Origin: an uncultured Anaerolineaceae bacterium
Lineage (GTDB): Bacteria; Chloroflexota; Anaerolineae; Anaerolineales; E44-bin32
DNA: 64,000 nt
NCBI GenBank assembly: GCA_964528155.1
Contig: CAZGRL010000003.1
Location: forward strand, 37,036 to 101,035
Reading direction: 5' to 3'
Within the stretch, counting starts at the first letter, position 1; every line of letters starts with the position of its first letter. The translations under genes and the position numbers were made by a program. The notes below the pieces were generated by a model. It did no database searches and was not told where the DNA came from. It saw only the letters and a list, made by a program, of their open reading frames with translations. This document shows positions 1 to 15,802 of this stretch, one piece after another.

Positions 1-1265
1 ATCTTGTCGGTCGACAACCCCCGCAGGTAGCGCGCGAAATCTGCCGCGGCGTCGATCTCCTCATATGTCCCGTGTTCCTCCGCCATCTCGCGCAGGCGGC
101 TCTGATACAGCTCCATCGAGTCAGTCAGAACCGTGAGAACGACGTCGTTCTCACCCAGCTCGTAGTACTTGGCGAACTTGATCGCCATGCTCAGATTGGC
201 AATCCCGGAGAAACCCAGCAGATCCAGATTGGCAACGAGCTCTTCCGGCACACCTTGCTTGACCAGGTAGGCGCGGCCCGCCGGCTCATTGAACAGCCTG
301 GACAGGTTGACGATGACGTTGTCGTCGAGATCAATGATCAGATCGGTGTTTTTCACGTTGTGAATCCAGGGTACGTGCTTGTCCCCAATGCCCTCGATAC
401 GATGCGAGCCGAAACCGTTCTCCAGCAATGTGGGACACTGCTCGGCCTCCCCGGCGGCGATCTTGCTCGCCGGATAGTATTGCTTCAAGTAGTCTCCGCA
501 GGCGATCGTGCCAGCCGATCCGGTGGTCAGGACTACACCCCGGTAGGTGTCGTGCGGACCGAGCTCGCGCTGCAACACCTCCTGCATGGCCGCGCCCGTT
601 ACATCGTAGTGCCACAAGTAGTTGCCGAACTCTTCGAATTGATTGAAGATCATCAGGTTTTCGCCCGAGCGTCGGAGTTCCCAGCACTTGTCGAAGATCT
701 CCTTGACGTTCGACTCAGTCCCGGGTGTGGCGATCACTTCCCCGGCGATGTTGGACAGCCACTCGAAACGCTCCCGGCTCATCCCTTCCGGCAGGATGGC
801 GATCGACGTGCAGGCAAGAAGGGCCGAGTCGTACGCCCCACCCCGACAGTAGTTGCCCGTTGAAGGCCAGACGGCCTTCTGCTGAGTGGGATCGAACTGC
901 CCGGTAACCAGGCGCGGAACGAGGCATCCGAAGGCCGCACCGACTTTGTGGGAGCCGGTCGGGAGCCATTTCCCCACCAGCGCCAGGATGCGGGCTGGAA
1001 CCCCTGTCAGGCTGCTCGGTAGCTCGATGTGATTCACGCCGCCGAAGCCGCCCCCCGAAGCGACCGGCTCGTTCTTCCACGTAATGCGGAACAGGTTCAA
1101 TGGATCGACATCCCACAGCCCGATCCCGGCAAGTTTCTCCCTGACTTTGTCGGGGACGAGCCGTGGATTCTTCATTTGGGCGAAGGTTGGGATGATGATG
1201 CCTCGTTCGCGCGCCCGCTTGAGGCCGCGCTCCAGACTGTCGGCGTCCAGGTTTAGATCGATCAT
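1..1265 (-). CDS. PLP-dependent enzyme, fold type II (cysteine synthase / Trp-synthase-beta superfamily); C-terminus lies outside the window
   Basis: Not in the ORF track because it runs off the edge. My translation from ATG (revcomp of cat 1263-1265): MIDLNLDADSLERGLKRARERGIIIPTF...LPTGSHKVGAAF (PLP-Lys motif)...VVLTTGSAGTIACG (Gly loop)...IEGIGDKHVPW. Track ORFs 72-863(+) and 715-1278(-) are other-frame artefacts. Confidence 0.75.
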   Translation of the reverse strand, partial: MIDLNLDADSLERGLKRARERGIIIPTFAQMKNPRLVPDKVREKLAGIGLWDVDPLNLFRITWKNEPVASGGGFGGVNHIELPSSLTGVPARILALVGKWLPTGSHKVGAAFGCLVPRLVTGQFDPTQQKAVWPSTGNYCRGGAYDSALLACTSIAILPEGMSRERFEWLSNIAGEVIATPGTESNVKEIFDKCWELRRSGENLMIFNQFEEFGNYLWHYDVTGAAMQEVLQRELGPHDTYRGVVLTTGSAGTIACGDYLKQYYPASKIAAGEAEQCPTLLENGFGSHRIEGIGDKHVPWIHNVKNTDLIIDLDDNVIVNLSRLFNEPAGRAYLVKQGVPEELVANLDLLGFSGIANLSMAIKFAKYYELGENDVVLTVLTDSMELYQSRLREMAEEHGTYEEIDAAADFARYLRGLSTDK

Positions 1266-1274
1266 CGAATTGAA

Positions 1275-2252
1275 TCACTCCTGTTTGTGATCTGTGTCAG
1301 AGTCCAGGTCGTGCGGAAGCTTGCGCACGACATATAGGGGGCGGCCTTTCGCCTCGTCATACAGTCTACCGATGTACTCGCCCAGAATCCCGAGCGATAT
1401 GAGCTGGACACCCCCGAGGAAGAGCACGGCGATCAGCGTCGTGGCCTGGCCGAAGAACGCCTGGCTTCCACTCAGGCGGAGGGCGATCACGACGGGGATC
1501 GCCAGCGCGCTGACACCGGCGAAGAGGAAGCCCAGGTAGGTCGCGATCTGCAGCGGAAAGTACGAGAAGCTCGTGATCGCATTCAAGGCAAGCCGCAGCA
1601 TCTTGGTGAACGGATACTTCGTCTTCCCGGCGAAACGCGGCTCCCGATCGTAGGGAACCCCGATCTGACGAAATCCGATCCAGGCCGCCATGCCGCGCGG
1701 GAATCGGTGTCTTTCCCTCATCTGACATAGCGCGTCAGCCGCCTCCCGATCCAAAAGCCGGAAATCCCCCGTGTCCACCGGGATATTGACGTCGGTGATC
1801 CGGTTGATCAGTCGGTAGAAGAGCGCCGCCGTGAATCGCTTGAACCATGTCTCGCCTTCGCGCGAGCTGCGCATGGCGTAGACGACCTGGTAGCCCTCGC
1901 GCCACCGCTTGACAAGCTCGGGGATGAGCTCGGGCGGGTCCTGCAAATCCGAGTCCATGATGACCACGGCCTGGCCGAGGCTGTAATCGAGTCCGGCCGT
2001 CACGGCGACCTGATGACCGAAGTTGCGGGCGAACACAACCGGGCGAACATGATGATCGCTCCGCGCGACCTCCAGGATGGCCTCCGTCGAGCCGTCCGTG
2101 GATCCGTCATCGACCAGGATCAGCTCCCATGCTTCGCCCTCGGCCTGCATGACCTGTGTCACGCGCCGCACGAACTCTGGAAGCGATTCGACCTCATCGA
2201 ACACCGGCGCCACGACCGTGAAGGTCGGCGTCTTGGCTGCTTTACGATTCAT
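1275..2252 (-). CDS. Family 2 glycosyltransferase (polyprenol-phosphate sugar transferase type, GtrB/ArnC/DPM1-like)
   Basis: 325 aa. GT-A motifs VVAPVFDE, LILVDDGSTDGS, MDSDLQDPPE. Two C-terminal TM helices. Confidence 0.85.
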   Translation of the reverse strand: MNRKAAKTPTFTVVAPVFDEVESLPEFVRRVTQVMQAEGEAWELILVDDGSTDGSTEAILEVARSDHHVRPVVFARNFGHQVAVTAGLDYSLGQAVVIMDSDLQDPPELIPELVKRWREGYQVVYAMRSSREGETWFKRFTAALFYRLINRITDVNIPVDTGDFRLLDREAADALCQMRERHRFPRGMAAWIGFRQIGVPYDREPRFAGKTKYPFTKMLRLALNAITSFSYFPLQIATYLGFLFAGVSALAIPVVIALRLSGSQAFFGQATTLIAVLFLGGVQLISLGILGEYIGRLYDEAKGRPLYVVRKLPHDLDSDTDHKQE

Positions 2253-3537
2253 GTCGAATCGTCTCCGTACGTGTCAGCTCGCGATGCAAAGCCTCAAGCG
2301 ACGGCTCGATCACCACCGCCTGTCCCGCGGCCCGCATACCCGCCTGCACGTCCTTGAGCCCGTTCCCCGTGATCAAACACACGACCTGCTCGGTCTCTGT
2401 GACGAGCCCCCTGGCGACAGCCTTGGCCAGCCCGGCGTAGGCGGCAGCCCCGGCCGGCTCGGCGAAGACGGCCGCATCTCGGCCCAGGCTGGCGATCGCC
2501 GCCAGGATCTCAGAATCGGTCACGGTCAGAACCTCACCGGCCGTTTCCCGAACGGCGCGCAACGCACGCAGACCGTCGCGAGGCTGATCAACCGAGATGC
2601 TATCAGCGATCGTGTCAGCCCGGACGGGCCGAATCGCGTTCTCCCCGGATTTGAACGCGTTGTAGATCGCCGCCGAGCCTTCAGATTGCACTCCTATAAG
2701 ACGCGGTGACCGTTCGATCCATCCTAGCGCCATCAGATCCTTGAAGCCCTTGTGCAGCCCGGTGATGATGTTTCCGTCGCCGACCGAGACGAAGACTGAA
2801 TCGGGCGAACGCCATCGTCGCCCATCCCCATCCGGCGGACCCAGCCTGGATGTGAGTTGCTCGCAGATTTCGAATGCCGCCGTCTTCTTGCCCTCGGCCG
2901 TGAACGGATTGTAGCCCGTATTGCGGCAGTACCACCCGAACTCGGCTGAGGCTTCCAGGGTGAGGTCGAACGCCTGGTCATATGTCCCATCGACCAGGAT
3001 GACACGCGCCCCGAAGATCAGGAGCTGGGCTACCTTGGCCGGTGGCGCACTCTTCGGCGCCAGGATCACCGCCGGTTGGCCAGCCGCGGCGGCCATGCCG
3101 GCCAGGGCCGCGCCGGCGTTGCCGGTAGAAGCGGTGGCGACGGTCTCAGCGCCGATCTCCCTGGCACGAGCGACGACGACCGCGCTCGCCCGGTCCTTGA
3201 ACGATGCCGTGGGATTGCGTCCGTCGTCTTTCACCCACAGATGCGCCAGGCCCATGGTTTGTGAGAGTCGTTCGGGCGAGAAGAGCGGCGTCCATCCGAC
3301 GGCTCGCAGCGGTGTGTCGATTAAGCCGGGATCTCGAACCGGCAACAAGGGGACATAGCGCCAGATGGACTCCTCGCGCGACTGTGAGATTCTCTCAGGG
3401 CCAGTCTCCCTGGCGATCGCCGAATAGTCGAGGACGACGTCCAGGTTGGCGCCATCGTCCGGGCAGATATAGGTAACCTCATCCGGCGCGTACTTCCTGC
3501 CGCAACCGGAGCAGACATATCCTGAAAACGTCCCCAT
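2242..3537 (-). CDS. Threonine synthase-like PLP enzyme with N-terminal zinc ribbon
   Basis: 431 aa. CSGCGRKY...YICPDDG zinc ribbon and PLP-lysine motif TASFKDRAS. Overlaps the downstream GT2 gene by 11 nt. Confidence 0.8.
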   Translation of the reverse strand: MGTFSGYVCSGCGRKYAPDEVTYICPDDGANLDVVLDYSAIARETGPERISQSREESIWRYVPLLPVRDPGLIDTPLRAVGWTPLFSPERLSQTMGLAHLWVKDDGRNPTASFKDRASAVVVARAREIGAETVATASTGNAGAALAGMAAAAGQPAVILAPKSAPPAKVAQLLIFGARVILVDGTYDQAFDLTLEASAEFGWYCRNTGYNPFTAEGKKTAAFEICEQLTSRLGPPDGDGRRWRSPDSVFVSVGDGNIITGLHKGFKDLMALGWIERSPRLIGVQSEGSAAIYNAFKSGENAIRPVRADTIADSISVDQPRDGLRALRAVRETAGEVLTVTDSEILAAIASLGRDAAVFAEPAGAAAYAGLAKAVARGLVTETEQVVCLITGNGLKDVQAGMRAAGQAVVIEPSLEALHRELTRTETIRHES

Positions 3538-3546: not shown

Positions 3547-4545
3547 CTAGTCCTTTTCGAATGGCATGCCGAGCGCCGCAGGCGGGACGACGCGCATCGA
3601 CCGCAGGACTCTGGCCACGATCATTCGGGCGGCAGGCGGTAGTCCGGCCAGTGTACGATCGACCCACTCGGCGTTGCCGATGTTGACAAGCAGCAATGTC
3701 AAGATCATCAATGGGAAGGGGGCAACCTGAAGCACTTGCGATGGCACGTTGGGAAGCGATGGCTGCAACACAAGCCCAAGCCACTGGAGCAGTCCGAACA
3801 GATAGGCCCCGATGGCGCCCCGGATGGGGTCCCAGCCACCGAAGATCACAAGTGCCAGGGCGATCCATCCGAACCCGTCCAGCCCGCTGATCGTCCCCTT
3901 CCAACCAGCCTTGACGCTGAGAGAAAACGTGGGGCCGGCCAGGCCCACCAACGAGCCCCCGATCACGGTATATGCGTAGCGCATCAAGGGCACGTTGGCG
4001 CCCCGGACAAAAGCGGCTGCCGGGCGTTCGCCGATTCCGCGCAGCATCAATCCGGGCCGCGTCCTGAAAACCCAGAACCAGGCGACGAAGATCAGGACAT
4101 AGCTGATATACACAAGCAGATTCTGCCGGAACAAGAGCGGCCCAAGAACAGGGATTTGACTCAGGAGCGGGATGGAAAGGGCCGGAACGCGGGGACCGGA
4201 GAGCCCCACAAACGGGTTCCCCAAGAAGTAGGCCATGTTCAGGGTCATCAACGCCAGCACATAGCCAACTGCCACCTGTGACTGCTTGAGCGTCAGGCTG
4301 GTGAAAGCCAGGACCAGGGCGACAAGGGCGCCCGTCAGCATGCCGGCCAGGAATCCGAGCAGGACGCTGTTAGTGGATGCGGCCACTGCGAAGGCCGTCA
4401 TGGCTGACAGCACGATGCTCCCATTCACGGACAGGTTGATCACCCCCGCCCGCTCGGTCAGGGTTTCGCCTATGGTGGCGAAGATTATGGGAGCCGCCGC
4501 AGCCAACACACCCGACAGGCCGGTTATGATCGCCGCTGTGTCCAT
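3547..4545 (-). CDS. ABC transporter permease (BMP/nucleoside-type importer)
   Basis: 332 aa, multi-TM, hydrophobic throughout. Operon position next to a second permease, a duplicated ATPase and a BMP binding protein. Confidence 0.85.
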   Translation of the reverse strand: MDTAAIITGLSGVLAAAAPIIFATIGETLTERAGVINLSVNGSIVLSAMTAFAVAASTNSVLLGFLAGMLTGALVALVLAFTSLTLKQSQVAVGYVLALMTLNMAYFLGNPFVGLSGPRVPALSIPLLSQIPVLGPLLFRQNLLVYISYVLIFVAWFWVFRTRPGLMLRGIGERPAAAFVRGANVPLMRYAYTVIGGSLVGLAGPTFSLSVKAGWKGTISGLDGFGWIALALVIFGGWDPIRGAIGAYLFGLLQWLGLVLQPSLPNVPSQVLQVAPFPLMILTLLLVNIGNAEWVDRTLAGLPPAARMIVARVLRSMRVVPPAALGMPFEKD

Positions 4546-4549
4546 ATCC

Positions 4550-5602
4550 CTAACCTAGCTCCCGACGAACCAACCTGCGCCGGGCTCCTTCCATCATCAG
4601 GAAGGCAAGGACCAGGGCACCCTGCAGAACCCCCGAGAGCGCTGAATCGAGTTTGAGTACGATCGGCAACTGGATGCTCCCAATGTTTAGCGCCGCAAAG
4701 AACAGGGATACCGGCGCTGCCCATACGGCTTGGTAGTTGATCAACATGGCGACCAGCAGACCCAGCCAGCCATAGTTGCTTGAGATGCTGGGGATCAGAC
4801 GGTGGTAGACGGCCGTCACTTGGATGGCGCCTGCCACACCGGCAAATACGCCACAAATCAGAAATGCGTTCATCATATAGCGCGCTGTCCGAATTCCCGA
4901 CAGATTGGCCGCGCGCTTGTTTCGGCCGACGGCTTTCAGTCGGAGGCCGAAATAGGTCCCCTGCAACATGAGGAACACGACTACAGTCCCCAGGATTCCG
5001 ATGAGTAGGGCCCACACGCTCAGACGGAGATGAGGCAACGTCGGCATCCACATCTCCTGGGGAAAAGGCACAGTGCCGCTCATCGAGCCGATCCCTGGTC
5101 GCTTCCAGGGGCCGAAGATAAGCCACAGTGTAATGGCGGTCGCCACGAAATCGAGGCCCAGGCCGCCGAAGATCTCGTTAACCCCGCCAAAAGTCTTCAA
5201 GGCACCCGCCAGGCCCGCCCACAACGCGCCGCCGATAGCGCCAGCCATGATGGCGAGCAGGATCATGACCGCTGGGGGAAGGCCGCTACCCTGCACCATG
5301 CGGAGCACACCGGTGGCGAAAATGGCTCCAAGCGTGATCTGCCCCTCCATGCCGATATTCCACAGACCGGCGGCGAATGTCACCAGCAGCCCAGCCGTCG
5401 ATAGCAGCAGAGGCACCCAGGCAACCATGACATTCGAGATGTTGTCAACCGATCCAAAGGCACCGCGTGCTAGTTGATCGAACGCCTGAAAGGGCGGCGC
5501 GCCAGCCAGGACCAACACAGCCACAGTGAAGAGGAATGCCAGTAGGACGGCCCCCAGCCGGAATCCAACGTCGATCCAGCGCGAGCTCTCTCTGACCATC
5601 AT
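4550..5602 (-). CDS. ABC transporter permease (BMP/nucleoside-type importer)
   Basis: 350 aa multi-TM protein, adjacent to its paralogous permease. 4-nt gap to the downstream gene. Confidence 0.85.
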   Translation of the reverse strand: MMVRESSRWIDVGFRLGAVLLAFLFTVAVLVLAGAPPFQAFDQLARGAFGSVDNISNVMVAWVPLLLSTAGLLVTFAAGLWNIGMEGQITLGAIFATGVLRMVQGSGLPPAVMILLAIMAGAIGGALWAGLAGALKTFGGVNEIFGGLGLDFVATAITLWLIFGPWKRPGIGSMSGTVPFPQEMWMPTLPHLRLSVWALLIGILGTVVVFLMLQGTYFGLRLKAVGRNKRAANLSGIRTARYMMNAFLICGVFAGVAGAIQVTAVYHRLIPSISSNYGWLGLLVAMLINYQAVWAAPVSLFFAALNIGSIQLPIVLKLDSALSGVLQGALVLAFLMMEGARRRLVRRELG

Positions 5603-5624
5603 TTCTCCCCGCTCATATGCTGGG

Positions 5625-7091
5625 CTACTTCAGGCCCACCCCGCCGATGAGCTCTCCAAGTCGTTCAACGCTGACCTCCCCCGAGTCGAGAGGCTCCGAC
5701 ACCTTGCCGGCAAAGAAGACCAGAATGCGATCGCTGTAGTGAAGCACTTCTTCGAGATCCGAGGAGACAAAAATCACCGCTGTACCTTCCAGACAGCGCT
5801 CCTTCAGCTTACGCCATGTGAAGATCGCTGATTCCATATCCAGGCCGCGCGTCGGCTGCTCCAGAAGAAGGAGTTTTAGCCCGGAACGCAGCAGGGCCAG
5901 CAACGCCCGCTGCTGGTTCCCACCCGAGAGAGCTTCAACCGGAGACCCCGGCTCACCGCGGATGTTGAACTCATTGATCCCTGCCCGCGCTCTGGCTCGA
6001 CCTTCCTCCCAATCGACGAACATCCCCCTTGAGGCCTGTGTCAGGATGAAATGTTCGGTCAGCGTCATACCCGGGACAAGGCCTTCTTCGAGCCGCGCCG
6101 CCGGCATGTAGCCGCATCCCCGCGCCTTGAAAGCATGGTAGCGCCGTCCGGTCATGTCTTGCCCATCGAGCAGCACCCTGCCGGCGACGGGGCGCACCAG
6201 TCCGGCACAACACTCCAGAAAAAGACGCTGACCACTACCCTCCATTCCCGCCAGCCCGATCACCTCACCCGCGCGGACGGACAATTCGATATCCTGAATC
6301 TGAAGTCTGGGATCCTCCATTGAAACGGTATGAAGTTCCAGCACCACGCGGTCTTCGTAGGTCGGCTTCTTCGGGGCCAGCGCGACCTCCCTGCCAAACA
6401 TCATTTCCACCAGTGTGGACGTCTTGTATGGCGCCTCCGTCTCGCCCACCAGCTTGCCCTCCCGCAAGACGGCGACGCGATGGCACAGTTCTTCGACCTC
6501 TTCCAACTTATGAGAAACGAAAATGACAGTACGACCTTCTTCGGCCAACCGTTGAAGCGTCTTGAACAACTTCTCACGCTGAGGTGCGCTGATCCCCGTG
6601 GTTGGCTCGTCGAGGATCATGACCTGCACACCCAGCCATAGCATTCGCAGGATCTCAAGTTGCTGGCGCTCACCTACGGTAAGAGTGTCCACGTAAGCAT
6701 TTGGATCCAGTGAGAAACCAAACTGCTCACCCAGCTGGCGCAACGCGCGGCGCGCGGTCCTCCGTCGCGGCAGCAGGGCCGAATCACTGCCGATTAGGAA
6801 ATTGTCGATGACTCTCATGGGGGGGAAATCAAGCGGGTCCTGATGCAGCATGCCGACGCCATAGGCAATGGCGTCCGCCGGGGACTTCATGCTCACCGCT
6901 GTTCCGTCAAGTATGATTTGGCCGCTGTCCGGTTCAATGAACCCGGAGAGTACCTTCATCAACGTGCTCTTGCCCGCGCCGTTTTCTCCAAGGAGGCCCT
7001 GGATCGTTCCAGACGGGATGTCGAGCGTGATCCCGGCATTGGCGTGCACGGGGCCGAAGTACTTGTGGATTTCTTTGAGCTCCACCTTCAT
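5625..7091 (-). CDS. ABC transporter ATP-binding protein with two fused ATPase domains
   Basis: 488 aa. Walker A GENGAGKST, Walker B MILDEPT, second-domain signature LSGGNQQR and LLLLEQPTRGLD. Confidence 0.9.
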   Translation of the reverse strand: MKVELKEIHKYFGPVHANAGITLDIPSGTIQGLLGENGAGKSTLMKVLSGFIEPDSGQIILDGTAVSMKSPADAIAYGVGMLHQDPLDFPPMRVIDNFLIGSDSALLPRRRTARRALRQLGEQFGFSLDPNAYVDTLTVGERQQLEILRMLWLGVQVMILDEPTTGISAPQREKLFKTLQRLAEEGRTVIFVSHKLEEVEELCHRVAVLREGKLVGETEAPYKTSTLVEMMFGREVALAPKKPTYEDRVVLELHTVSMEDPRLQIQDIELSVRAGEVIGLAGMEGSGQRLFLECCAGLVRPVAGRVLLDGQDMTGRRYHAFKARGCGYMPAARLEEGLVPGMTLTEHFILTQASRGMFVDWEEGRARARAGINEFNIRGEPGSPVEALSGGNQQRALLALLRSGLKLLLLEQPTRGLDMESAIFTWRKLKERCLEGTAVIFVSSDLEEVLHYSDRILVFFAGKVSEPLDSGEVSVERLGELIGGVGLK

Positions 7092-7161
7092 GATGGGTCC
7101 CGTTTGAACAGGGGGTGGCCGGCGCGCAGCCGGCCCACCCCCTCACGGATCACACTTTCGG

Positions 7162-8451
7162 CTACTGCGACGGAACGCTCTGGCCCTCCATGCCCTCGAG
7201 AAGCTGAGGCAGGTACCAAACTTGCTGGTCGGTGGCCGTTTCACCATCCTGAAGATAGGCGGTGCCGTCCTGCAGATTGATCGGGCCGGTCCACAGATCC
7301 AGGCCGGACCCCAGTTCGCCGATGAACGTGTCCACGGTGGACGAGGCATCAGCGCTCAAACCCTGGCCCTTGGCGAATCCGACTGCCGAGGTGTCCGGGT
7401 TGTTGATGTCCGACCAATCCGGCGGGTTCCAGGCGAACTCCGATTGGAACGTGCCGTCCTGGACCGAATTGATGATCTTCAGGTAGCTTGGCCCCCAGTT
7501 GAAGTACGGCACGCCCAGACACACACTGGGTGCTTCGGCGCAGCCGTCCTTGTAGTCGTAGGAGACCGCCCATACCTGCTGGCCTTGGCCGGCATACTTG
7601 TTGGCCTCCGCCAGCGCCTCGGTGGTGTCAATGCCTGACACAACCACGTCGTAGCCGCTGTTGAAGAAATCATCCGCCACCTGAGTGGGGTCGGAGGTCA
7701 CACCAGGGATGTTGAACCAGAACCCAATCCAGGTCACCTTGAATTGCAGATCGGCGGCATCCTTATTCAGGTAGTTGGTCCAGCAGTACTTCGCACCCAG
7801 ATAGACCGAGGAGGCCAGGCGACGGGTCTCGTCGTTGATCAATGGACCCAGATAGCCGATCTGGCCCGTCTGCGTCGTCAGGGCAGCCGCACAGCCGGCG
7901 ATCATCTTGCCGTAAATCATCTTGCCCATCGTGTTGGTCATGTTCGGGAGGCCCTGGTAGTCCTTCCCGTCCGTCCATGCCTGATCGCCGGAGGCCATGA
8001 TCACCGGGACGTCGGGGTGATTCTGGGCGAACTCGTTGGCGCTGTCCTTCATGTCATCCGAACTGAAGTCGATAATCGTAGCGCCCTGAGACAGCAGGCT
8101 TTCAGCCAGTTGGGCCGGCGTCGTGCCGGGACGGTCAGCCGAGTTCGCTTTGTCGATGTATACGAACTCGAAGCCTGGCAGATTGTCGGCGACATATTGG
8201 GCACCGTCATAGTGCGCCTGGCTCCAGCCATGGTCGTTGTAAGGCCCGACCAGTAACAAACCAAGGACCGGCGGGGCCATCGTCGGTGCTTCGGTCGCCG
8301 GGGCTTCGGTCGCGGCAGCCGGTGGCTGCGTGGGCGCGGGAGCCTGGGTCGGTGGCGCTTGGGTCGGCGTCGCCGCCGGAGCGCAGGCCGCCGCAAGCAT
8401 CACCACGACGGCCGCCACAGCCAGCATGCGCCACATCTTGTTTTCGGGCAT
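7162..8451 (-). CDS. BMP-family ABC substrate-binding lipoprotein (purine nucleoside/nucleobase-type)
   Basis: Start moved to the ATG at 8451 (MPENKMWRML...), 6 nt after GGAGGAG. Signal peptide with lipobox LAAC, Pro/Thr/Ala-rich linker, then a BMP-like body (LLVGPYNDHGWSQ...). Confidence 0.85.
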   Translation of the reverse strand: MPENKMWRMLAVAAVVVMLAAACAPAATPTQAPPTQAPAPTQPPAAATEAPATEAPTMAPPVLGLLLVGPYNDHGWSQAHYDGAQYVADNLPGFEFVYIDKANSADRPGTTPAQLAESLLSQGATIIDFSSDDMKDSANEFAQNHPDVPVIMASGDQAWTDGKDYQGLPNMTNTMGKMIYGKMIAGCAAALTTQTGQIGYLGPLINDETRRLASSVYLGAKYCWTNYLNKDAADLQFKVTWIGFWFNIPGVTSDPTQVADDFFNSGYDVVVSGIDTTEALAEANKYAGQGQQVWAVSYDYKDGCAEAPSVCLGVPYFNWGPSYLKIINSVQDGTFQSEFAWNPPDWSDINNPDTSAVGFAKGQGLSADASSTVDTFIGELGSGLDLWTGPINLQDGTAYLQDGETATDQQVWYLPQLLEGMEGQSVPSQ

Positions 8452-8551: not shown

Positions 8552-9508
8552 TCAAGGGAGGATCCACGTTCCAGTCTCGCCGGCCAATGCCCGGCCGATG
8601 TTCTGCGGATCGGTGATCAGGGCCTCACGGCCGCCCCGCTCCAAGTACCCGATGATCGCCCGGACCTTGGGCTCCATCGATCCTTTGGCGAAGTGACCTT
8701 CGGCCAGATACTGCCTGGCTTCCGCCAGCGTCATCCGGTCCAGCCATCGTTGATCCGGCTTATTGTAGTTTAGAGCCACCTTTTCGACTGCCGTGGTGAT
8801 CAGGAACAAGTCGGCTTGAATGCTGGTGGCCATCAGCGCCGCGCCGAAGTCTTTGTCAATAACGGCCTCGACACCCACCAGGCCCCCGCTTTCGTCCTCA
8901 ACTACAGGGATACCCCCGCCGCCGTTACTGATGACAACGAAACCGGATCGGATGAGGGTCTCGATCGCGTCTCGCTCTACGATCCGCTTCGGTAGCGGCG
9001 ACGGGACGACCCTGCGCCAGCCCCGTCCGGCGTCTTCAACCACGGCCCAGCCGTCAGCCTGGCGGTGCTGGGAGGCCGTGGGCTCGTCCATGAAGGATCC
9101 GATCGGTTTACTCGGACTCTTGAAAGCCGGATCATCGCGATCGACCAGCGCCTGCGTGATAACCGTGGCGGCCTGCCTTTCCAGGCCGCGCTTGTGGAAC
9201 TCGTTGTAAAGCGCCTGCTGAAACATGTACCCGATCGCACCTTGCGTGTCGGCGCCGCAATAGTCGAGTGGAACCGGATGCAGTTCGTGGATCGCCAGCT
9301 CGGTGCGGCGCAAGATGAACCCCACCTGCGGCCCGTTGCCGTGCGTGATGACGACGTTCCACCCGGCCTCGATCATATCGGTGATCCGGGCCATCGACTC
9401 GACAGCCGCGGCGTACTGATCCGGCACGGTCCGATGGGCCTTGTCTTTGATCAGTGAATTGCCGCCCACGGCGACGACAGCGATCTTGCCTCCATTGGCA
9501 TGACTCAT
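8552..9508 (-). CDS. arcC: Carbamate kinase
   Basis: 318 aa. KIAVVAVGGNSL and ITHGNGPQVG motifs of the carbamate kinase / amino-acid kinase fold. Confidence 0.9.
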   Translation of the reverse strand: MSHANGGKIAVVAVGGNSLIKDKAHRTVPDQYAAAVESMARITDMIEAGWNVVITHGNGPQVGFILRRTELAIHELHPVPLDYCGADTQGAIGYMFQQALYNEFHKRGLERQAATVITQALVDRDDPAFKSPSKPIGSFMDEPTASQHRQADGWAVVEDAGRGWRRVVPSPLPKRIVERDAIETLIRSGFVVISNGGGGIPVVEDESGGLVGVEAVIDKDFGAALMATSIQADLFLITTAVEKVALNYNKPDQRWLDRMTLAEARQYLAEGHFAKGSMEPKVRAIIGYLERGGREALITDPQNIGRALAGETGTWILP

Positions 9509-9524: not shown

Positions 9525-10505
9525 TCAGCGCATGGTCAGGGCCATGACGGCCTTCTGCACATGCATCCGGTTTTCCGCCTCATCGTAGACGACGCTCTGC
9601 GGGCCGTCGATCACCGCATTCGACACCTCGACCTCACGATCGGCCGGCAGAGGGTGCATGTAGATGGCGTCCGGTTTGGCCAGAGCCATCTTCCGTTCAT
9701 CGGTGATCCAGGATTCGTACTTCTTGATGATCCGAGCTCCCTCATCTTGATCCGTCGTCGTCAGCAGGGCCCCCCACGACTTGGCGTAAACGATGTCCGC
9801 ATCCTTGAAGCCGGCCTCCATGTCGTCGACGACCTCGAACCCTGCGCCGAACTTGGCCGCCTGGCGCCGGGCCTCTTCCATGACCCCGGGCATCAACTTG
9901 AATTCGGGGGGATGGGCCAGCACAACGTCCAGCCCGAAGCGCGGCATTTGCAGGATGAGCGACTGGGGCACAGAGATCGGCTTCTGATATGAAGCGGCAT
10001 AGGCCCACGACACAACCATCTTCTTCCGCCTCAAGTCGCGTCCCTTCTTCTCGACGATCGTCAGCAAGTCAGCCAGGATCTGGAAGGGGTGATAGATCTC
10101 GCATTGCATGTTCAGAACGGGCACCCGGCTGTGCCGGGCGACATCGTTCAGGTATTGGTTCCCCACTCCCCAATCGACATGTCGAATGGCGATCCCGTCG
10201 AAGTAGCGGCCGAAGATCTCGCCGATCTCTTTGGGCGTGTCTCCATGGGCGATCTGAGTGGTTTTCGCCTCGATGAACGCAGCATGCCCGCCGAGCTGGG
10301 CCATCCCCGCTTCGAAAGACCCGCGTGTGCGCGTGCTGCTGAAGAAGAACAGCATCGCCAGGACTTTGTCTCGCAGGTAGGGATGCGGTTCTCCCAGCGC
10401 CCGCTTGTGCTTGAGATCGAGGGCGACATCCAGAACAGTCTCAACCTCTTCCCGGCTGAAATCCAGGTCGCCGATTAGATCTCGCCCGCGTAAGTCGGTC
10501 TGCAT
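9525..10505 (-). CDS. Non-canonical carbamoyltransferase (OTC superfamily; AOTCase/SOTCase/YgeW-like signature)
   Basis: 326 aa. Carbamoyl-phosphate motifs SSTRTR and HPFQ are present. The OTC ornithine motif DxxxSMG is replaced by YAKSWG, and HCLP by HPLPADR. Confidence 0.8.
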   Translation of the reverse strand: MQTDLRGRDLIGDLDFSREEVETVLDVALDLKHKRALGEPHPYLRDKVLAMLFFFSSTRTRGSFEAGMAQLGGHAAFIEAKTTQIAHGDTPKEIGEIFGRYFDGIAIRHVDWGVGNQYLNDVARHSRVPVLNMQCEIYHPFQILADLLTIVEKKGRDLRRKKMVVSWAYAASYQKPISVPQSLILQMPRFGLDVVLAHPPEFKLMPGVMEEARRQAAKFGAGFEVVDDMEAGFKDADIVYAKSWGALLTTTDQDEGARIIKKYESWITDERKMALAKPDAIYMHPLPADREVEVSNAVIDGPQSVVYDEAENRMHVQKAVMALTMR

Positions 10506-10517
10506 CTGTCCTCCACG

Positions 10518-10587
10518 TTTAGCTGTCAGGCTTCAGCACTCAGCTTTCGGCCCTCAGCATTCAGCTCTCAGCTTTCTGTTGTCAATT
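10518..10587. repeat. Heptanucleotide tandem array, 10 units, consensus NTCAGCT (AGCTGAN on the coding strand)
   Basis: TTTAGCT GTCAGGC TTCAGCA CTCAGCT TTCGGCC CTCAGCA TTCAGCT CTCAGCT TTCTGTT GTCAATT. Ends 3 nt from the GGAGG of gene 9525-10505. Confidence 0.8.
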
Positions 10588-10644
10588 CGAGTGTTCGGTC
10601 TCCGGTCTCTTTGGTCGCAAACTTCAAGGCAGTCCCCCAATACT

Positions 10645-10714
10645 CTTAGCTTGTTGCTTATTGCTCATTGCTGATAGCTGTCAGCTATTAGCTGTCAGCT
10701 TTCAGTTGTCAGCT
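10645..10714. repeat. Heptanucleotide tandem array, 10 units, same consensus
   Basis: CTTAGCT TGTTGCT TATTGCT CATTGCT GATAGCT GTCAGCT ATTAGCT GTCAGCT TTCAGTT GTCAGCT. The last unit overlaps the stop codon at 10713-10715. Contains the palindrome ATAGCTGTCAGCTAT (10674-10688). Confidence 0.8.
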
Positions 10715-11666
10715 ATCCCTCCATCTTCCCCAGCACGAGCGCCAGAAGCGCCATCCGCATCACGACGCCGTTGAAGGCCTCGGCCCAGTAGCGCGCATGG
10801 CGGGTGTAATCGACCTCCTCCAGCAACTCGTCCATCCTGGGCAGCGAGTGAAGGATGAGCGAGTCGGGCTTGGCTTTGCGCATCAGGGCCTTGGTGACCT
10901 GATAGTTTGCCGGCGTCATGCCCACATCGCCCTTGCGCTCATCGCGCGACTTGGTGTAGTCCGGCTGAACGACAGGCTCCATGTACAGAACGTCGGCCTC
11001 GGCGATGGCCTGATCGACGTGTTCGATCTCGCGGTAGCGCAGGTTGAGATCATCCAGTTCCTTCTTAAACTCGTCCGTCAGGGACATCTCGGGCGGAGAA
11101 ACATACCTGGCCTGGATGTCGAACTGCGACATGGCGTAGCTGATCGAATGCATCGTCCGCATGCGCATGTCGCCGATGAGCAGGAAGGTCAAACCGTCCA
11201 GGCGACCCTTCTCCTTGAGGATGGTGTACATATCCGTCAAGACCTGGGTCGGATGCTCGCCCCATCCGTCGCCGCAGTTGATCACCGGCACGCTCGACCA
11301 GCGCGCCGCCTCAGCCGGTGCCCCCTGCTGGAAGTGACGCATGGCGATGACGTCGCCGTAGTACTCCAGCATGTGCACGGTGTCCTTGATCGACTCCTGG
11401 TAGAAGTCGCCGGCCCGGGTCATTTTGGCATCCGAGAAACCCGTCACATGGCCGCCCAGCCGATGCATTGCCGCCTCGGTCGCCAGGCGCGTCCGGGTAG
11501 ATGGCTGGTAGAAAGCCGTCACCAGCGTTTTGCTGGTCAACATGTCCGTATTGCGACGGTCGCGCGCGAACGGAGCGAGCTCATCCGCCACCTGGAAAAC
11601 CCTGAAGAACTCCTCTCGTTCGAATCCTTTGAGCGACAAGATGTCACGCCCTGCGAAACTTCTCAT
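10713..11666 (-). CDS. Aspartate carbamoyltransferase-like paralogue with an altered second-substrate motif
   Basis: 317 aa. STRTR, HPTQ and HSLPR are present. The ATCase Asp-binding R-x-Q-x-E-R region reads LYMEPVVQPDY, so the Arg is missing. Confidence 0.8.
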   Translation of the reverse strand: MRSFAGRDILSLKGFEREEFFRVFQVADELAPFARDRRNTDMLTSKTLVTAFYQPSTRTRLATEAAMHRLGGHVTGFSDAKMTRAGDFYQESIKDTVHMLEYYGDVIAMRHFQQGAPAEAARWSSVPVINCGDGWGEHPTQVLTDMYTILKEKGRLDGLTFLLIGDMRMRTMHSISYAMSQFDIQARYVSPPEMSLTDEFKKELDDLNLRYREIEHVDQAIAEADVLYMEPVVQPDYTKSRDERKGDVGMTPANYQVTKALMRKAKPDSLILHSLPRMDELLEEVDYTRHARYWAEAFNGVVMRMALLALVLGKMEG

Positions 11667-11757: not shown

Positions 11758-12510
11758 TCAACTGCGACGGCCCACTCGTCGAACGACATGGAAACGAAAC
11801 GTGCCCGGCAGGAAGAAGCTGTGCGAGTGATCGATCACACCGCCGTCCTCGGCGTACAAGAAAGCCTCAAAGCGCAACAACACATCACCGCGTTGAACCT
11901 TCAGCTTACGACCCACGTCGGCCGACGCCGGCACAGCCGTGATCTCGGACCTTGAGAGTCCGAGGGCCGGTGTCCCTTGCTTCAGCAGTAGATCGAGCAC
12001 TGAGCCGCGGAAGCCTTCCTCCAGAGCACTTTCCGAGACGACACCGTCAGGGACGACGTCTACCAGGTAGGCGACGGGCCGGCTATCGGCTTCGATGACC
12101 CGGGAGACATCGAGAACGATTGCCCCCGGAGACCCTCCGAACAGCTGTTGTTCCTCCGGGTCGGATGCTCGGCGATTGATGGTCAGGTCTCCCATTTCGA
12201 CCTCGAGACCAATACGCCCGGCCAGCGTCTCGATGCTCTCCAGCACTTCGAGCCCGGCATCGATGATCGGCAGTGGCCGGGCCACAACCGTCCCCACACC
12301 CTGGCGGCGAATGATCACGCCGCGCTCCTCGAAGGCACGCATCGCCTCGCGCAGCGTGGCGCGCGAGACGCCGAGCTCACGCGATAATGCTGGCTCCGAT
12401 GGCAGGAACGTGCCCGGTGAAGTATGAGCCAGGATGTTCTCCAGGGCCTCAGCCGTGCGCTGGTACAACGGGCTACCCTTTTCAGATCGCTCCCGTCGCG
12501 TCTGCCTCAT
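11758..12510 (-). CDS. GntR-family transcriptional regulator (HutC/UTRA-type)
   Basis: 250 aa. Winged HTH LPSEPALSRELGVSRATLREAMRAFEERGVI plus a roughly 150 aa effector domain. Confidence 0.85.
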   Translation of the reverse strand: MRQTRRERSEKGSPLYQRTAEALENILAHTSPGTFLPSEPALSRELGVSRATLREAMRAFEERGVIIRRQGVGTVVARPLPIIDAGLEVLESIETLAGRIGLEVEMGDLTINRRASDPEEQQLFGGSPGAIVLDVSRVIEADSRPVAYLVDVVPDGVVSESALEEGFRGSVLDLLLKQGTPALGLSRSEITAVPASADVGRKLKVQRGDVLLRFEAFLYAEDGGVIDHSHSFFLPGTFRFHVVRRVGRRS

Positions 12511-12526: not shown

Positions 12527-14329
12527 TCATCCCAGGCTTTCTTCGAGAGGCACGATCGAATGCTGTGTGACGTCCACCAGGCCCTTGTCCGAGATGCGCA
12601 ACTCCGGGATCACCACCAAAGCCAGCAGACTGAGTTGCATGTTGGCGTTGTTCAACTCGCAGCCGCAATCTCGCAGGCCCGCCAGGATGCCCTCAGCCTT
12701 GTCGGCGACGACATCCGCTCGCTCGTCCGACATCAATCCGGCGATCGGAAGCTCGAGCAGGGCCTCAACCCTCCCTTCGCGCACCACGATCTGCCCGCCA
12801 CCGACTCTGGCCAATTCATTGGCCGCCATGGCCATTGAGGCTTCGTCCGTCCCGACCACGAGCATGTGATGTGAGTCGTGCGCGACGGTCGAGCCGGCGG
12901 CACACGGAACCTTCAGGCCAAAACCCTGGACAAAGCCCAATTGGATCGTCCCATTGCCTCGGTGCCTCTCGACAAGAGCCACCTTCGCCAGATCTCGGCT
13001 TGTGTCCGCTTTGAGCTCGCCGCAGTTCGGTTTGAGATCCATCTGGATGTGCCGCGTCGGGGCCTGGTTCTCAATGATTCCGATCACATTCGCTCGTACG
13101 GCATCCGAATCGGAAGCGTGGATCACGAAGTCGGACGGCTCCAGGGGCCGCTTGAGGTGCACCGAATCCTTGACGTCCGCTGGGAACTCGAAGTCAGGCA
13201 ACTCGATTTTCAGGCGGCCGGCCTCGGCGGCGAGCACGCCGCGAGCGATGACTTGCTCCGCTCGGAGGTTCGCCAAGTCGCTCACCAGGAGAATGTCGGC
13301 CCAACGCCCGGGCGCGATCTGTCCGACCTCGTCGGCGACCCCGAAGTGCTCTGCGGTGTTCAGCGTCGCCATCTGTATGGCCGTCATCGGCGTGATCCCT
13401 TGCTTGATGGCATGCCGAACCACACGGTCCATGTGACCGTCGTGCACCAGCGTCCCCGAGTGGCTGTCGTCAGTGACCAGCATGAAATGCCGCGAATCGA
13501 GACCGAGTTTCGTGATCGCCGGGGCTTGGGCGGCCACGTCGTACCAGGCCGATCCAAGACGCAGCATCGCCTTCATACCCTGTCGGACGCGCGCCACGGC
13601 ATCCTGCACACGCGTGCCTTCGTGGTCGTCGGCAGCCCCTCCGGCGGCGTATGCGTGGAACTCGAGCCCGAGATCCGGCGATGGATAGTGCCCACCAATG
13701 ACTTTGCCGGCCGCTTCGGTCGCTGCCATTTCGGCCAGAACCTGGTCGTCGTCCTGAACCACCCCGTGGAAGTTCATCATCTCTCCCAGCCCGATCACAC
13801 CGGGCCAGGCCAGCGCTTCGGCGATTTCAGCCGGACCGAGCACCGCTCCGGGTGTCTCGAGGCCCGGGCTCGAGGGCACACACGATGGCACCTCGACCCA
13901 CACGTGGATCGGTTGGAGCACGGCCTCGTCGTGCATCAATCGCACGCCCCTCAAGCCGAAGACGTTGGCGATCTCGTGAGGGTCGATGAACATCCCAGTC
14001 GTCCCGTGGGGCAGGACAGCGCGGACGAACTCGGTCACAGTGACCATACCCGACTCGACGTGCATATGTCCGTCGAGCAGTCCCGGGACCAGATAGCGGC
14101 CGCCGGCTTCGATGACTTGTGTTCCCTCACCAATCGTGTGACTCGCGTCTTCTCCGACGTAGGCGATCCGCCCTGCGCTCACGGCGACGTCCGTGTGCTC
14201 AATGATCTCGCCCGACTGCACACACACCCAACGACCATCGCGAATGACCAGATTGGCCGATTGACGGCCCATGGCGACATCGATCAATCGGCGCCTCAAC
14301 CCCTGTCGAGATTTCACGTCCATGGTCAC
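12527..14329 (-). CDS. ade: Adenine deaminase
   Basis: 600 aa amidohydrolase. LLDGHMHVESG metal motif and the two-domain length typical of Ade. Confidence 0.85.
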   Translation of the reverse strand: MTMDVKSRQGLRRRLIDVAMGRQSANLVIRDGRWVCVQSGEIIEHTDVAVSAGRIAYVGEDASHTIGEGTQVIEAGGRYLVPGLLDGHMHVESGMVTVTEFVRAVLPHGTTGMFIDPHEIANVFGLRGVRLMHDEAVLQPIHVWVEVPSCVPSSPGLETPGAVLGPAEIAEALAWPGVIGLGEMMNFHGVVQDDDQVLAEMAATEAAGKVIGGHYPSPDLGLEFHAYAAGGAADDHEGTRVQDAVARVRQGMKAMLRLGSAWYDVAAQAPAITKLGLDSRHFMLVTDDSHSGTLVHDGHMDRVVRHAIKQGITPMTAIQMATLNTAEHFGVADEVGQIAPGRWADILLVSDLANLRAEQVIARGVLAAEAGRLKIELPDFEFPADVKDSVHLKRPLEPSDFVIHASDSDAVRANVIGIIENQAPTRHIQMDLKPNCGELKADTSRDLAKVALVERHRGNGTIQLGFVQGFGLKVPCAAGSTVAHDSHHMLVVGTDEASMAMAANELARVGGGQIVVREGRVEALLELPIAGLMSDERADVVADKAEGILAGLRDCGCELNNANMQLSLLALVVIPELRISDKGLVDVTQHSIVPLEESLG

Positions 14330-14359: not shown

Positions 14360-15736
14360 TCAGCCGTTCACCAACCGCATCGCTGCCCTGTTGTGCGCTT
14401 CGACCAATGCATCGTGGTCAAGGCTCACCAAGCGACCCTGTCTCACGACCGCATTTCCATGCACAAAATTGAAGTCGACGTCGCCCGGGTTGCAGAAAAC
14501 GGCAGCCGCGACCGGGTCATGCCGGGCACCCGCGAAACCGATCCGATCGAGGTCGATGGCGACGAAGTCGGCGCACTTCCCCGCTTCGAGTGAGCCCAGA
14601 TCGGTCCGCCCCAGAACCGCGGCGCCACCAAGAGTAGCGATTTCAAGGACCTCGCGAGCGCTGAGAAGATCCCCGGCTCCATGGACCTCAGGTGCAACCG
14701 GGACAGCCACCCTCGACAGCAGCATTGCTTGCCGCGCCTCGGCCAGCAAATGCGAGCTGTCATTGCTGGCCGATCCATCGACTCCCAGACCGATGTCCAC
14801 GCCCGCTTTCAGATAGCGTCGCACAGGGGCAATCCCGGACGCCAGACGCATGTTCGACGAAGGGCAATGTGCGACCCCGGTCCGAGCCGCCGCCATCCGC
14901 GCGACTTCATCGGGCAGAATGTGAACGGCGTGGGCGAACCAGACATCGTCGCCGGCCCAATCCAGACTCTCGACGAAAGCGAGGGGCCGCAGACCGAATT
15001 TCTCCAGGCAGAACGATTCCTCATCCAGAGTCTCGGCCAGATGTGTGTGCAGACGCACGTTGTATGCGCGGGCAAGCGAGGCCGCCTCGCGCATCAGCTC
15101 CGGCGTGACCGAAAATGGCGAGCATGGTGCGATGACCACCTGGACCATGGCGCCCGGCTTTGGATCATGGAATGCCTCGATCACCCGGCGGCAGTCTTTC
15201 AAGATCTCATCTTCGGATTCGACGACACGGTCGGGCGGTAGGCCTCCCTGGCTCTCACCCAGGCTCATCGAGCCGCGTGAAGCATGCAGGCGCAGGCCAA
15301 CCTCACCCGCAGCCTGGATCTCGTCATCCAACCGGCAATCGTTCGGGAAGATGTAGAGATGGTCGGATGCGGTCGTACAGCCCGAGAGCGCCAGCTCGGC
15401 CAGCCCAAGCTGCGTCGAAACGCGGACGTCATCTGCCCGCATCCTGGCCCAGATCGGGTACAGGGTCTTGAGCCAACGGAACAGGTCGGCGTCTTGAGCC
15501 TGCGGAATCACCCGTGTCAGGGTCTGATAGAGGTGATGGTGAGTGTTGATCAAGCCGGGGAGGAGCAGATGGCGAGAAAGATCGAGGACTTCGTCAGCGG
15601 TCTCGGGGAGTTCGTTCGTGGGGCCGACCTGGTCAATCCAGCCATCCCGGACGAAGAGCCCGCCATCACGGATCTCCCTGCGGCCGGCGTCCATCGTGAC
15701 CAGGCATTCGGCGTGACGTACCAGGAGCGTCGACAT
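14360..15736 (-). CDS. Amidohydrolase of the guanine/8-oxoguanine deaminase/SsnA group
   Basis: Start set at the internal ATG 15736 (MSTLLVRHAECLVTMD), preceded by GGAAGG. LINTHHHLYQT HxH motif and HLAETLDE. The track ORF extends to 15784. Confidence 0.8.
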   Translation of the reverse strand: MSTLLVRHAECLVTMDAGRREIRDGGLFVRDGWIDQVGPTNELPETADEVLDLSRHLLLPGLINTHHHLYQTLTRVIPQAQDADLFRWLKTLYPIWARMRADDVRVSTQLGLAELALSGCTTASDHLYIFPNDCRLDDEIQAAGEVGLRLHASRGSMSLGESQGGLPPDRVVESEDEILKDCRRVIEAFHDPKPGAMVQVVIAPCSPFSVTPELMREAASLARAYNVRLHTHLAETLDEESFCLEKFGLRPLAFVESLDWAGDDVWFAHAVHILPDEVARMAAARTGVAHCPSSNMRLASGIAPVRRYLKAGVDIGLGVDGSASNDSSHLLAEARQAMLLSRVAVPVAPEVHGAGDLLSAREVLEIATLGGAAVLGRTDLGSLEAGKCADFVAIDLDRIGFAGARHDPVAAAVFCNPGDVDFNFVHGNAVVRQGRLVSLDHDALVEAHNRAAMRLVNG

Positions 15737-15762
15737 GCCACCTTCCAGGGGATGCTGGGCCG

Positions 15763-15791
15763 AGTGTAACACTCCGACCGGCAAGCGTCAA
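15763..15791 (-). promoter_or_regulatory. Sigma-70-like promoter for the amidohydrolase-ade-gntR operon
   Basis: Minus strand reads TTGACG, a 17-nt spacer, then TACACT. The -10 element ends about 27 nt upstream of the ATG at 15736. Confidence 0.5.
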
Positions 15792-15802
15792 TTGTCAGAC
15801 AA
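15792..15802. promoter_or_regulatory. Palindrome TTGTCAGACAA abutting the -35; candidate GntR/HutC-type operator
   Basis: Arms TTGTC/GACAA are perfect inverted repeats. The GT-N-AC core resembles HutC-subfamily operators. The half-site TGTCAG recurs in the 10645-10714 array. Confidence 0.3.

Follow-up and report, generated by a model that had tools for sequence, protein, structure and literature searches.

We analysed a 64,000-nt stretch of DNA (hereafter the window) from an uncultured Anaerolineaceae bacterium (contig CAZGRL010000003.1, positions 37,036 to 101,035), whose left end carries a row of genes with two atypical carbamoyltransferases (TC1 and TC2) and a carbamate kinase (CK). Six-frame open reading frames (ORFs) and profile searches gave 13 minus-strand genes, all in one orientation and with short gaps, running from position 15736 to the left window edge. 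A sequence-only reading of the same DNA had already described such a co-oriented row, and the gene identities it listed were all found to be correct by profile searches and curated models; it had announced sixteen genes, however, where 13 were counted and its own list names 13. From right to left, the features are the following.

15763..15791, minus strand: sigma-70-like promoter motif TTGACG-17-TACACT, before the first gene
14360..15736, minus strand: AH1, 8-oxoguanine deaminase (amidohydrolase), by the NF006055 equivalog model and similarity to PDB 3HPA/7WW2
12527..14329, minus strand: AH2, adenine deaminase, by TIGR01178, with an Adenine_deam_C domain
11758..12510, minus strand: GntR/HutC-type regulator with a helix-turn-helix and a UTRA effector domain, by profile searches
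10713..11666, minus strand: TC1, carbamoyltransferase resembling aspartate carbamoyltransferase (ATCase), a "pseudo-ATCase", by motifs and cross-phylum conservation
10506..10712, minus strand: spacer between TC1 and TC2, containing 14-nt repeats in two arrays (10532-10576 and 10675-10716)
9525..10505, minus strand: TC2, compact carbamoyltransferase resembling N-acetylornithine carbamoyltransferase (AOTCase) and YgeW, by motifs and pairing with carbamate kinase
8552..9508, minus strand: CK, by TIGR00746 and PRK12352/NF009007
7162..8466, minus strand: Bmp/PnrA-family substrate-binding protein of an ATP-binding cassette (ABC) importer, by PF02608 (38 bits)
5625..7091, minus strand: ABC ATPase with two nucleotide-binding domains, by profile search
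4550..5602, minus strand: ABC permease (BPD_transp_2), by profile search
3547..4545, minus strand: ABC permease (BPD_transp_2), by profile search
2242..3537, minus strand: ThrC-like fold-type-II pyridoxal phosphate (PLP) enzyme with an N-terminal CxxC ribbon, by profile search and recurrence with TC1
1275..2252, minus strand: GT2, a glycosyltransferase resembling those acting on polyprenyl phosphate, by profile search; Anaerolineae only
1..1265, minus strand: PLP2, CysK-like fold-type-II PLP enzyme, cut by the window edge (489 aa in relatives)

Named best hits assign the window to Anaerolineales (Chloroflexota). In public sources, TC1 goes under the name of "aspartate carbamoyltransferase" and TC2 under that of "(N-acetyl)ornithine carbamoyltransferase". 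The carbamoyl-phosphate site is retained in TC1 (STRTR, R105 in RH, and HPTQ) and is made of motifs that are found superfamily-wide. In ATCases, the beta-carboxylate of aspartate is bound by R229 and Q231. The RxQxER motif that holds these two residues was not found in TC1: its 240s loop reads YMEPVVQPDY where ATCases have YxTRxQxER, a replacement that at least 90% of 82 TC1 orthologues share. The 80s loop, GDFYQE, has a 2-residue insertion and no Lys, K84 being gone, and HSLP takes the place of HPLP. Among representatives at 50% identity, RxQxER is missing from all sequences that carry the GD insertion in the 80s loop. The score of TC1 with the ATCase model TIGR00670 was a borderline pass (242.1, cutoff 236.95), and NF002032 gave 220 for a cutoff of 263. 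TC1 belongs to a tight clade, whose representatives are 78-79% identical, the next ones standing at 44-49%; over the whole clade, identity is at least 72% within and at most 49% to the next representatives.

The assignment of TC1 to the pseudo-ATCases was judged by motifs, against Table 1 of Barba et al. 2013 (PMC4016543). TC1 has HSLP (H[ST]LP) and no RxQ, and its V-Q-P fits the V-x-P of subgroup 3, for which HSLP together with V-x-P is the signature (PMC4016543). Group 1 holds the ureidoglycine carbamoyltransferase of Rubrobacter, encoded beside a CK, which phosphorolyses the diureido acid allantoate, and group 2 an enzyme of Nocardioides JS614 encoded beside a ygeW homologue, xdhABC and hyuA (PMC4016543). 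Subgroups 2 and 3 are still orphan since 2013. Judging from its motifs, TC1 is not a biosynthetic PyrB.

TC2 (326 aa) has neither the ornithine-binding DxxxSMG loop of ornithine carbamoyltransferases (OTCs) nor their HCLP, and carries AKSWGALL and HPLP. It scored below every curated cutoff: 244 with TIGR00658 (cutoff 281) and 256 with NF001986 (cutoff 306) for OTCs, 250 with the AOTCase model (cutoff 288), and 180 with TIGR03316 (cutoff 500) and 187 with NF005538 (cutoff 453) for YgeW. When aligned to the AOTCase 3L04, it showed VDWGVGNQYL in an extended 120s loop, a W-x-Y..KP loop and an identical YAKSWGAL, the segment which contains the carboxylate-binding Lys of AOTCase; its 80s loop is short. 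An AlphaFold2 model built from a shallow alignment had a mean pLDDT of 60.6 and was not used. TC2 occurs as two subtypes, at 64-74% and 47-52% identity. By these motifs and scores, TC2 is not a biosynthetic ArgF. A placement of the two enzymes as biosynthetic PyrB and ArgF, which the sequence-only reading had named as the result that would speak against it, was thus not what we found, as both fail the substrate-motif tests of ATCases and OTCs. The adjacent CK passed both its models (TIGR00746, 373 for a cutoff of 358; PRK12352, i.e. NF009007, 402 for a cutoff of 266). Carbamate kinases convert carbamoyl phosphate and ADP into ATP, CO2 and NH3.

GTDB species genomes were then scanned for TC1, which gave 80 loci whose TC1 is 73-88% identical, and the window proteins were mapped onto them. 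TC1 is 72-88% identical across at least five phyla, its carriers being Anaerolineae, Acidimicrobiales, Gaiellales, Thermoleophilia, Spirochaetota, Phycisphaerales, Thermotogae and one metagenome-assembled genome (MAG) of Verrucomicrobiota. Among them are an Anaerolinea thermophila MAG (L072) and MAGs of uncultured Pelolinea (L034 and L039). TC2 was present in 39 of the 40 TC1 loci that had 8 kb or more of sequence on each side, as was CK, and TC2 and CK were adjacent in 56 loci. Outside Anaerolineae, this core sits among an iron-sulfur (FeS) subunit, the molybdenum (Mo) subunit of xanthine dehydrogenase (Xdh), SsnA, an F420-dependent luciferase-like oxidoreductase (LLM) or YgfK, an FAD subunit and a cyclic amidohydrolase. 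In the well-flanked loci devoid of the Anaerolineae-type GntR, Xdh was found beside TC1 in 8 of 11, SsnA in 5 of 11, and LLM or YgfK in 5 of 11. The plainest example is a Spirochaetota locus (L035) with the order Xdh - cyclic amidohydrolase - TC1 - PLP2 - TC2 - CK - YgfK - SsnA - ThrC-like, its YgfK scoring 1355 bits with TIGR03315 (cutoff 835) and its SsnA 556 with TIGR03314 (cutoff 455), and the full pathway gene set occurs with TC1 both there and in actinobacterial loci. The core idea of the sequence-only reading, a catabolic module of carbamoyltransferase and CK for purines that recalls ygeW-ygeX-yqeA-ssnA, is supported by these data, since orthologues of TC1, TC2 and CK adjoin SsnA, YgfK or the F420-dependent LLM, Xdh and hydantoinase in Spirochaetota, Actinomycetota and other Anaerolineae.

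Both PLP enzymes travel with TC1. PLP2, which starts at 1265 and runs off the window, lies next to TC1, or one ThrC-like gene apart, in 11 loci outside Anaerolineae. The ThrC-like enzyme recurs with TC1 in Spirochaetota, Thermotogae and Phycisphaerales, and in Actinomycetota the gene between PLP2 and TC1 encodes a ThrC-like protein that has diverged but also bears the N-terminal CxxC ribbon. PLP2 and a ThrC-like enzyme are recurrent partners in all lineages. Peptidase_M20 was not among the families recurrent near TC1, and no recurrent YgeY-type M20 was found.

The window itself has just the carbamoyltransferases, the CK and the PLP enzymes among the markers of the urate pathway; tblastn detected in it no Xdh, YgfK, SsnA, hydantoinase or LLM. 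The sequence-only reading had said as much for xdh, hydantoinase and the like, which is true of the window and misleading all the same, as close relatives carry such genes immediately beyond the left edge. Its further statement that the intermediates were not obvious was not supported: relatives with a 92-96% identical PLP2 have hydantoinase and Xdh 4-9 kb to the left. The left flank of the window was deduced from these relatives, which also have matching gene sizes. After PLP2 come a small ORF, methylmalonate-semialdehyde dehydrogenase (MMSDH), a D-hydantoinase/dihydropyrimidinase, a class-III aminotransferase, an XdhB-like FAD subunit and a fused FeS-Mo Xdh, the hydantoinase and both Xdh genes all being within 9 kb of PLP2. 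In two of them (L087 and L088), the D-hydantoinase scored 519 with TIGR02033 (cutoff 393) and MMSDH 532 with TIGR01722 (cutoff 448).

In a metagenome scan with the Xdh of these relatives, which did not return the L087 contig itself, SsnA followed Xdh in 23 of the 31 loci with enough downstream sequence, and the F420-dependent LLM did so in 20 of the 31, often with F420 biosynthesis genes after them. Five loci (L105, L108, L147, L150 and L162) join both halves, in the order ThrC-like - GT2 - PLP2 - small ORF - hydantoinase - Xdh - SsnA. Because the loci of relatives continue from PLP2 into hydantoinase, Xdh and SsnA, the row in the window most likely makes up the first two thirds of a supercluster of about 25-30 kb that leads from purines to pyruvate.

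Several other features of this left flank were recorded. The small ORF after PLP2 (155-230 aa; L087 11526-11993, L039 16818-17429, L058 11548-12234, L080 16943-17503) has no Pfam or NCBIfam match, is 38-63% identical between Anaerolineae loci, and is expected just past the left edge of the window. MMSDH (CoA-acylating), the class-III aminotransferase and the hydantoinase of L087 (12254-18535) and L088 form a trio typical of reductive pyrimidine catabolism, and no beta-ureidopropionase was seen near it in these two loci. Directly after Xdh-SsnA-LLM, seven metagenome loci of Chloroflexota type (L093, L101, L115, L130, L135, L143 and L158) have genes for F420 biosynthesis and recycling, namely CofD, F420 gamma-glutamyl ligase and F420-dependent NADP oxidoreductase, and in several of them DUF1385 and an M20 dipeptidase lie divergently upstream. 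As a YgeY candidate, we weighed and rejected an M20 peptidase that 4 of 16 loci have close to Xdh-SsnA-LLM: the four proteins fall into one sequence cluster, and the member tested belongs to a dipeptidase family, on the opposite strand and beside DUF1385.

A pathway with these markers, the reductive urate pathway, was elucidated in 2025 through work on gut bacteria (PMC12507026; bioRxiv 10.1101/2025.04.24.650524). Urate is converted to 2,8-dioxopurine by XdhD, and reduction by YgfK and ring opening by SsnA and HyuA lead to 2,3-diureidopropionate; YgeW then uses phosphate to release carbamoyl phosphate from it, YqeA makes ATP, YgeY hydrolyses the second ureido group and YgeX yields pyruvate, so that one ATP is conserved while the second ureido group is lost by hydrolysis (same references). 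In SsnA clusters of Chloroflexota, an F420 luciferase-family enzyme replaces YgfK (PMC12507026).

We consider it fairly probable that the row belongs to an environmental variant of this anaerobic reductive uric-acid (2,8-dioxopurine) pathway, and encodes its energy-conserving lower branch together with an importer and the deaminases that feed it. As to substrates, the ureido group attacked by each carbamoyltransferase and the roles of both PLP enzymes, we infer the following scheme. The Bmp-type ABC system would probably import purine bases, of which 8-oxoguanine would be deaminated to urate, and adenine to hypoxanthine for Xdh-type hydroxylases. Genes beyond the window, which in relatives are the Xdh FAD and FeS/Mo subunits, SsnA, the F420-dependent luciferase-like reductase and D-hydantoinase, would convert urate to 2,3-diureidopropionate. 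TC2, in the role of YgeW, would phosphorolyse the 3- (side-chain) ureido group, and TC1 the 2- (alpha) ureido group, standing in for the YgeY hydrolase of E. coli. CK would use each carbamoyl phosphate to make ATP, for a maximum of 2 ATP per urate. The ThrC-like enzyme, the CysK-like enzyme or both may stand in for YgeX and convert 2,3-diaminopropionate (or albizziin) into pyruvate and ammonia, and the GntR/UTRA protein would control the row.

The proposed division of labour between TC1 and TC2 is drawn from family chemistry. ATCase-type enzymes act on alpha-ureido acids, and OTC/AOTC-type enzymes on side-chain ureido groups. For this reason TC2 is assigned the 3-ureido group and TC1 the 2-ureido group, the latter also because it keeps the alpha-carboxylate Arg and has lost the beta-carboxylate binders. 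A further reason, for TC2, is L-2,3-diaminopropionate transcarbamylase (DPTCase), an OTC-branch enzyme of zwittermicin/viomycin biosynthesis which makes beta-ureidoalanine (albizziin) from 2,3-diaminopropionate (PMC4581275). TC2 is given the role of YgeW, since it always comes together with CK in the way that ygeW comes with yqeA. The order of ureido cleavage proposed here agrees with Liu et al., and bears on a question left open in PMC12990295.

Several points weigh against this scheme. Its functional links all come from gene neighbourhood and homology. GT2 lies within the row and has no place in the scheme, and two PLP enzymes exceed what the proposed chemistry requires. The absence of YgeY and YgeX was assessed at the level of gene neighbourhoods. 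SsnA and the reductase were not seen in the window or within the 10 kb that could be reached in the closest relatives, one of which (L087) ends inside the Xdh gene, and in these relatives MMSDH and the class-III aminotransferase beside the hydantoinase hint at pyrimidine catabolism. Finally, the regiochemistry of YgeW is itself disputed (PMC12990295).

Another version of the same pathway would have just one ureido group phosphorolysed. TC2 would then do the job of YgeW, TC1 would act on a different ureido compound such as allantoate/ureidoglycine, or on ring-opened 5-ureido-dihydrouracil, a minor SsnA product, and the CysK-like enzyme would eliminate urea from albizziin by beta-elimination. 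Such a scheme suits the arrangement in Actinomycetota and Spirochaetota, where TC1 and PLP2 are adjacent or separated by a single gene, the pairing of TC2 with CK, and the chemistry of CysK-family enzymes, whose reactions typically take place at the beta carbon of alanine derivatives. It would also match the Rubrobacter pseudo-ATCase, which acts on allantoate (PMC4016543). However, neither a urease or urea-handling gene nor uricase or allantoate-forming genes recur in the loci, and the near-invariable co-occurrence of TC1 and TC2 is what would be expected if both served one substrate series. We hold this version to be unlikely.

A role of one or both carbamoyltransferases in reductive pyrimidine catabolism is less likely again. 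Phosphorolysis of N-carbamoyl-beta-alanine or N-carbamoyl-beta-aminoisobutyrate would replace beta-ureidopropionase, and an aminotransferase and MMSDH would follow. [quoted passage not shown] Elsewhere, however, MMSDH is not recurrent with TC1 and the aminotransferase was found only at 31-33% identity, in four Acidimicrobiales loci, whereas the recurrent partners Xdh, SsnA and YgfK/LLM are purine-specific. Moreover, TC1 has lost R229 and Q231, which would hold the carboxylate of beta-alanine if it were bound like aspartate. As for the view that TC1 and TC2 are the ordinary PyrB and ArgF of the organism, with carbamoyl phosphate supplied by CK and unrelated neighbours, the public annotation names and the TC1 score just over the TIGR00670 cutoff (242 vs 237) speak for it, but it is contradicted by the motif tests (no RxQxER, K84 or HPLP in TC1, no DxxxSMG or HCLP in TC2), by the lack of pyr or arg genes in the row and by the linkage to CK, Xdh and SsnA conserved across phyla, and we find it very improbable.

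Returning to the reductive urate variant, its boldest form is one that we advance tentatively, and with less confidence than the general assignment. Both ureido groups of 2,3-diureidopropionate would be harvested as carbamoyl phosphate by two dedicated carbamoyltransferases, which would raise the substrate-level yield twofold, to 2 ATP per urate; the orphan pseudo-ATCase clade would receive its first physiological substrate, two new fold-type-II PLP enzymes would stand in for diaminopropionate ammonia-lyase, and the arrangement would be widespread (Anaerolineae, Acidimicrobiia, Thermoleophilia, Spirochaetota and others).

The feeder deaminases both passed their curated models. AH1 reached 671 bits with the 8-oxoguanine deaminase model NF006055 (cutoff 532) and aligned end to end with 8-oxoguanine deaminases (PDB 3HPA, 560 bits; 7WW2, 532 bits); it is predicted to form urate from 8-oxoguanine. 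It failed the curated SsnA model NF005540 (124, cutoff 444), and the idea that it substitutes for SsnA was discarded, as AH1 and a true SsnA coexist in L058, L064 and L086. Likewise, AH2 (498 with TIGR01178, cutoff 472; 271 bits with PDB 3NQB) is not a substitute for hydantoinase, the two being found together in L058. AH1 orthologues at 48-51% identity also adjoin TC1 in Acidimicrobiales; AH2, GntR, folD and GT2 were found near TC1 in Anaerolineae only, the GntR/UTRA regulator adjoining TC1 in 40 related loci.

In loci L007-L086, the TC1 of Anaerolineae shares 72-79% identity with those of Actinomycetota, Spirochaetota and Planctomycetota, compared with 55-68% for CK and 25-56% for the ThrC-like enzyme; the conservation of TC1 reflects either lateral transfer or unusually strong constraint. 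Comparison of L002, L005, L087 and L088 showed that the Bmp-type ABC cassette (3547-8466) is swapped between close relatives: L002 has a TC1 94% identical to that of the window, yet its Bmp protein is 27% and its ATPase 38% identical, and L088 has transporter proteins 92-95% identical to those of the window. GT2 has C-terminal membrane helices and lies between the PLP genes, overlapping one by 11 nt and separated from the other by 9 nt. Look-ups of the exact GT2 and ThrC-like sequences gave no match. Anaerolineae retain the ThrC-like - GT2 - PLP2 block throughout and other phyla lack it, and no role of GT2 in purine catabolism is apparent.

The 207-nt TC1-TC2 spacer has about three 14-nt units in each of its arrays, TAGCTGTCAGCTAT at 10675-10716 and TTCAGCCCTCAGCT at 10532-10576. 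The near-palindrome AGCTGWCAGCT occurs nowhere else in the window. Close relatives have other GCTRA-type repeats in this spacer, or just 45 nt. These palindromic repeats were considered as a GntR operator and rejected, since the spacer is hypervariable and is missing in the closest relative (L088); on this comparison the repeats are probably not a conserved regulatory site.

Upstream of the row, the promoter motif at 15791-15763 announced by the sequence-only reading does exist and is well placed, with an extended TG and about 27 nt to the GGAAGG ribosome-binding site and the ATG at 15736. It is no evidence by itself, however, as such motifs occur at the frequency expected by chance (3 in 17 kb, vs 3.6 in shuffled sequence). 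As to the word "island", GC content is flat (0.59-0.65) over the window and gives no compositional sign of one. An Rfam search of the window gave no RNA family. Two ORFs overlapping PLP2 were discarded, both having no family match: 715-1278 (minus strand, 187 aa), a listed ORF which is a wrong-frame artefact, and 72-863 (plus strand, 263 aa), a spurious ORF of GC-rich DNA in another frame.

On the same strand and directly upstream of the row lies folD (16968-16039), and further upstream a fusion of a Ser/Thr protein kinase with beta-propeller repeats of PD40/Tricorn type (19250-17175), a synteny kept in Anaerolineae relatives only. A fused FTCD was confirmed at 50175-51707 (FTCD_N, FTCD and FTCD_C), with an acyl-CoA dehydrogenase, an AMP-binding enzyme and a thiolase-like gene upstream (39.7-49.4 kb) and PGA_cap downstream. 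The suggestion that folD and FTCD handle formimino or one-carbon products was rejected as unsupported: neither a formimino nor a C1-folate step is part of the reductive urate pathway, the adjacency of folD is confined to Anaerolineae, and FTCD lies 34 kb off among acyl-CoA genes, no link having been found.

The variant is common in uncultured anaerobes of sediment, groundwater and digesters, and a second carbamoyltransferase in place of a hydrolase would raise the energy yield of purine fermentation. If the scheme is correct, a function would be given to thousands of proteins annotated as aspartate/ornithine carbamoyltransferase and cysteine synthase A, and 8-oxoguanine and adenine would be environmental entry substrates. 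It would also make a testable prediction on the order of ureido cleavage, and the family logic (ATCase-like for alpha-ureido, AOTCase/YgeW-like for side-chain ureido groups) would settle the disputed order in the E. coli pathway.

Compared with known systems, AH1 is like 8-oxoguanine deaminase (3HPA, 7WW2) over its full length, and no difference was detected at the sequence level. With the pseudo-ATCases of Barba et al., TC1 shares an ATCase-like fold, an intact carbamoyl-phosphate site and the loss of RxQ, and its layout matches that of group 2, beside a second, YgeW-like carbamoyltransferase with xdh and hydantoinase nearby. It differs in forming its own tight clade, the published groups (PMC4016543) being compared by motif description only, and the substrate proposed for it is one methylene longer than the allantoate of group 1. 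The reaction of DPTCase, reversed, is the one proposed for TC2 (PMC4581275), but DPTCase is biosynthetic, and its HDLP and (T/S)RWQTTG are missing in TC2, which has HPLP and KSWGALL. The arginine and agmatine deiminase pathways, with a catabolic OTC or putrescine carbamoyltransferase and CK, likewise couple ureido phosphorolysis to ATP formation by CK; they differ in their substrates, in their carbamoyltransferase subfamilies and in using one such enzyme per pathway.

The closest system is the cluster of E. coli and Clostridium sporogenes (xdhD-ygfM, ygfK, ssnA, hyuA, ygeW, yqeA, ygeY, ygeX). The type of pathway is known, and the arrangement with two carbamoyltransferases, two PLP enzymes, and deaminases plus an ABC importer is not described in the literature we found. 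Both systems use a carbamoyltransferase and CK for substrate-level ATP and end with a fold-type-II PLP enzyme, and in relatives the module is likewise near Xdh, SsnA, YgfK (or the F420-dependent LLM) and hydantoinase. In contrast to that cluster, no YgeY-type M20 recurs near the module, and the row has two carbamoyltransferases, neither of the YgeW family, ThrC-like and CysK-like enzymes for YgeX, additional 8-oxoguanine and adenine deaminases and a GntR regulator, and, where that cluster has a UacT-type permease, an ABC importer of Bmp type.

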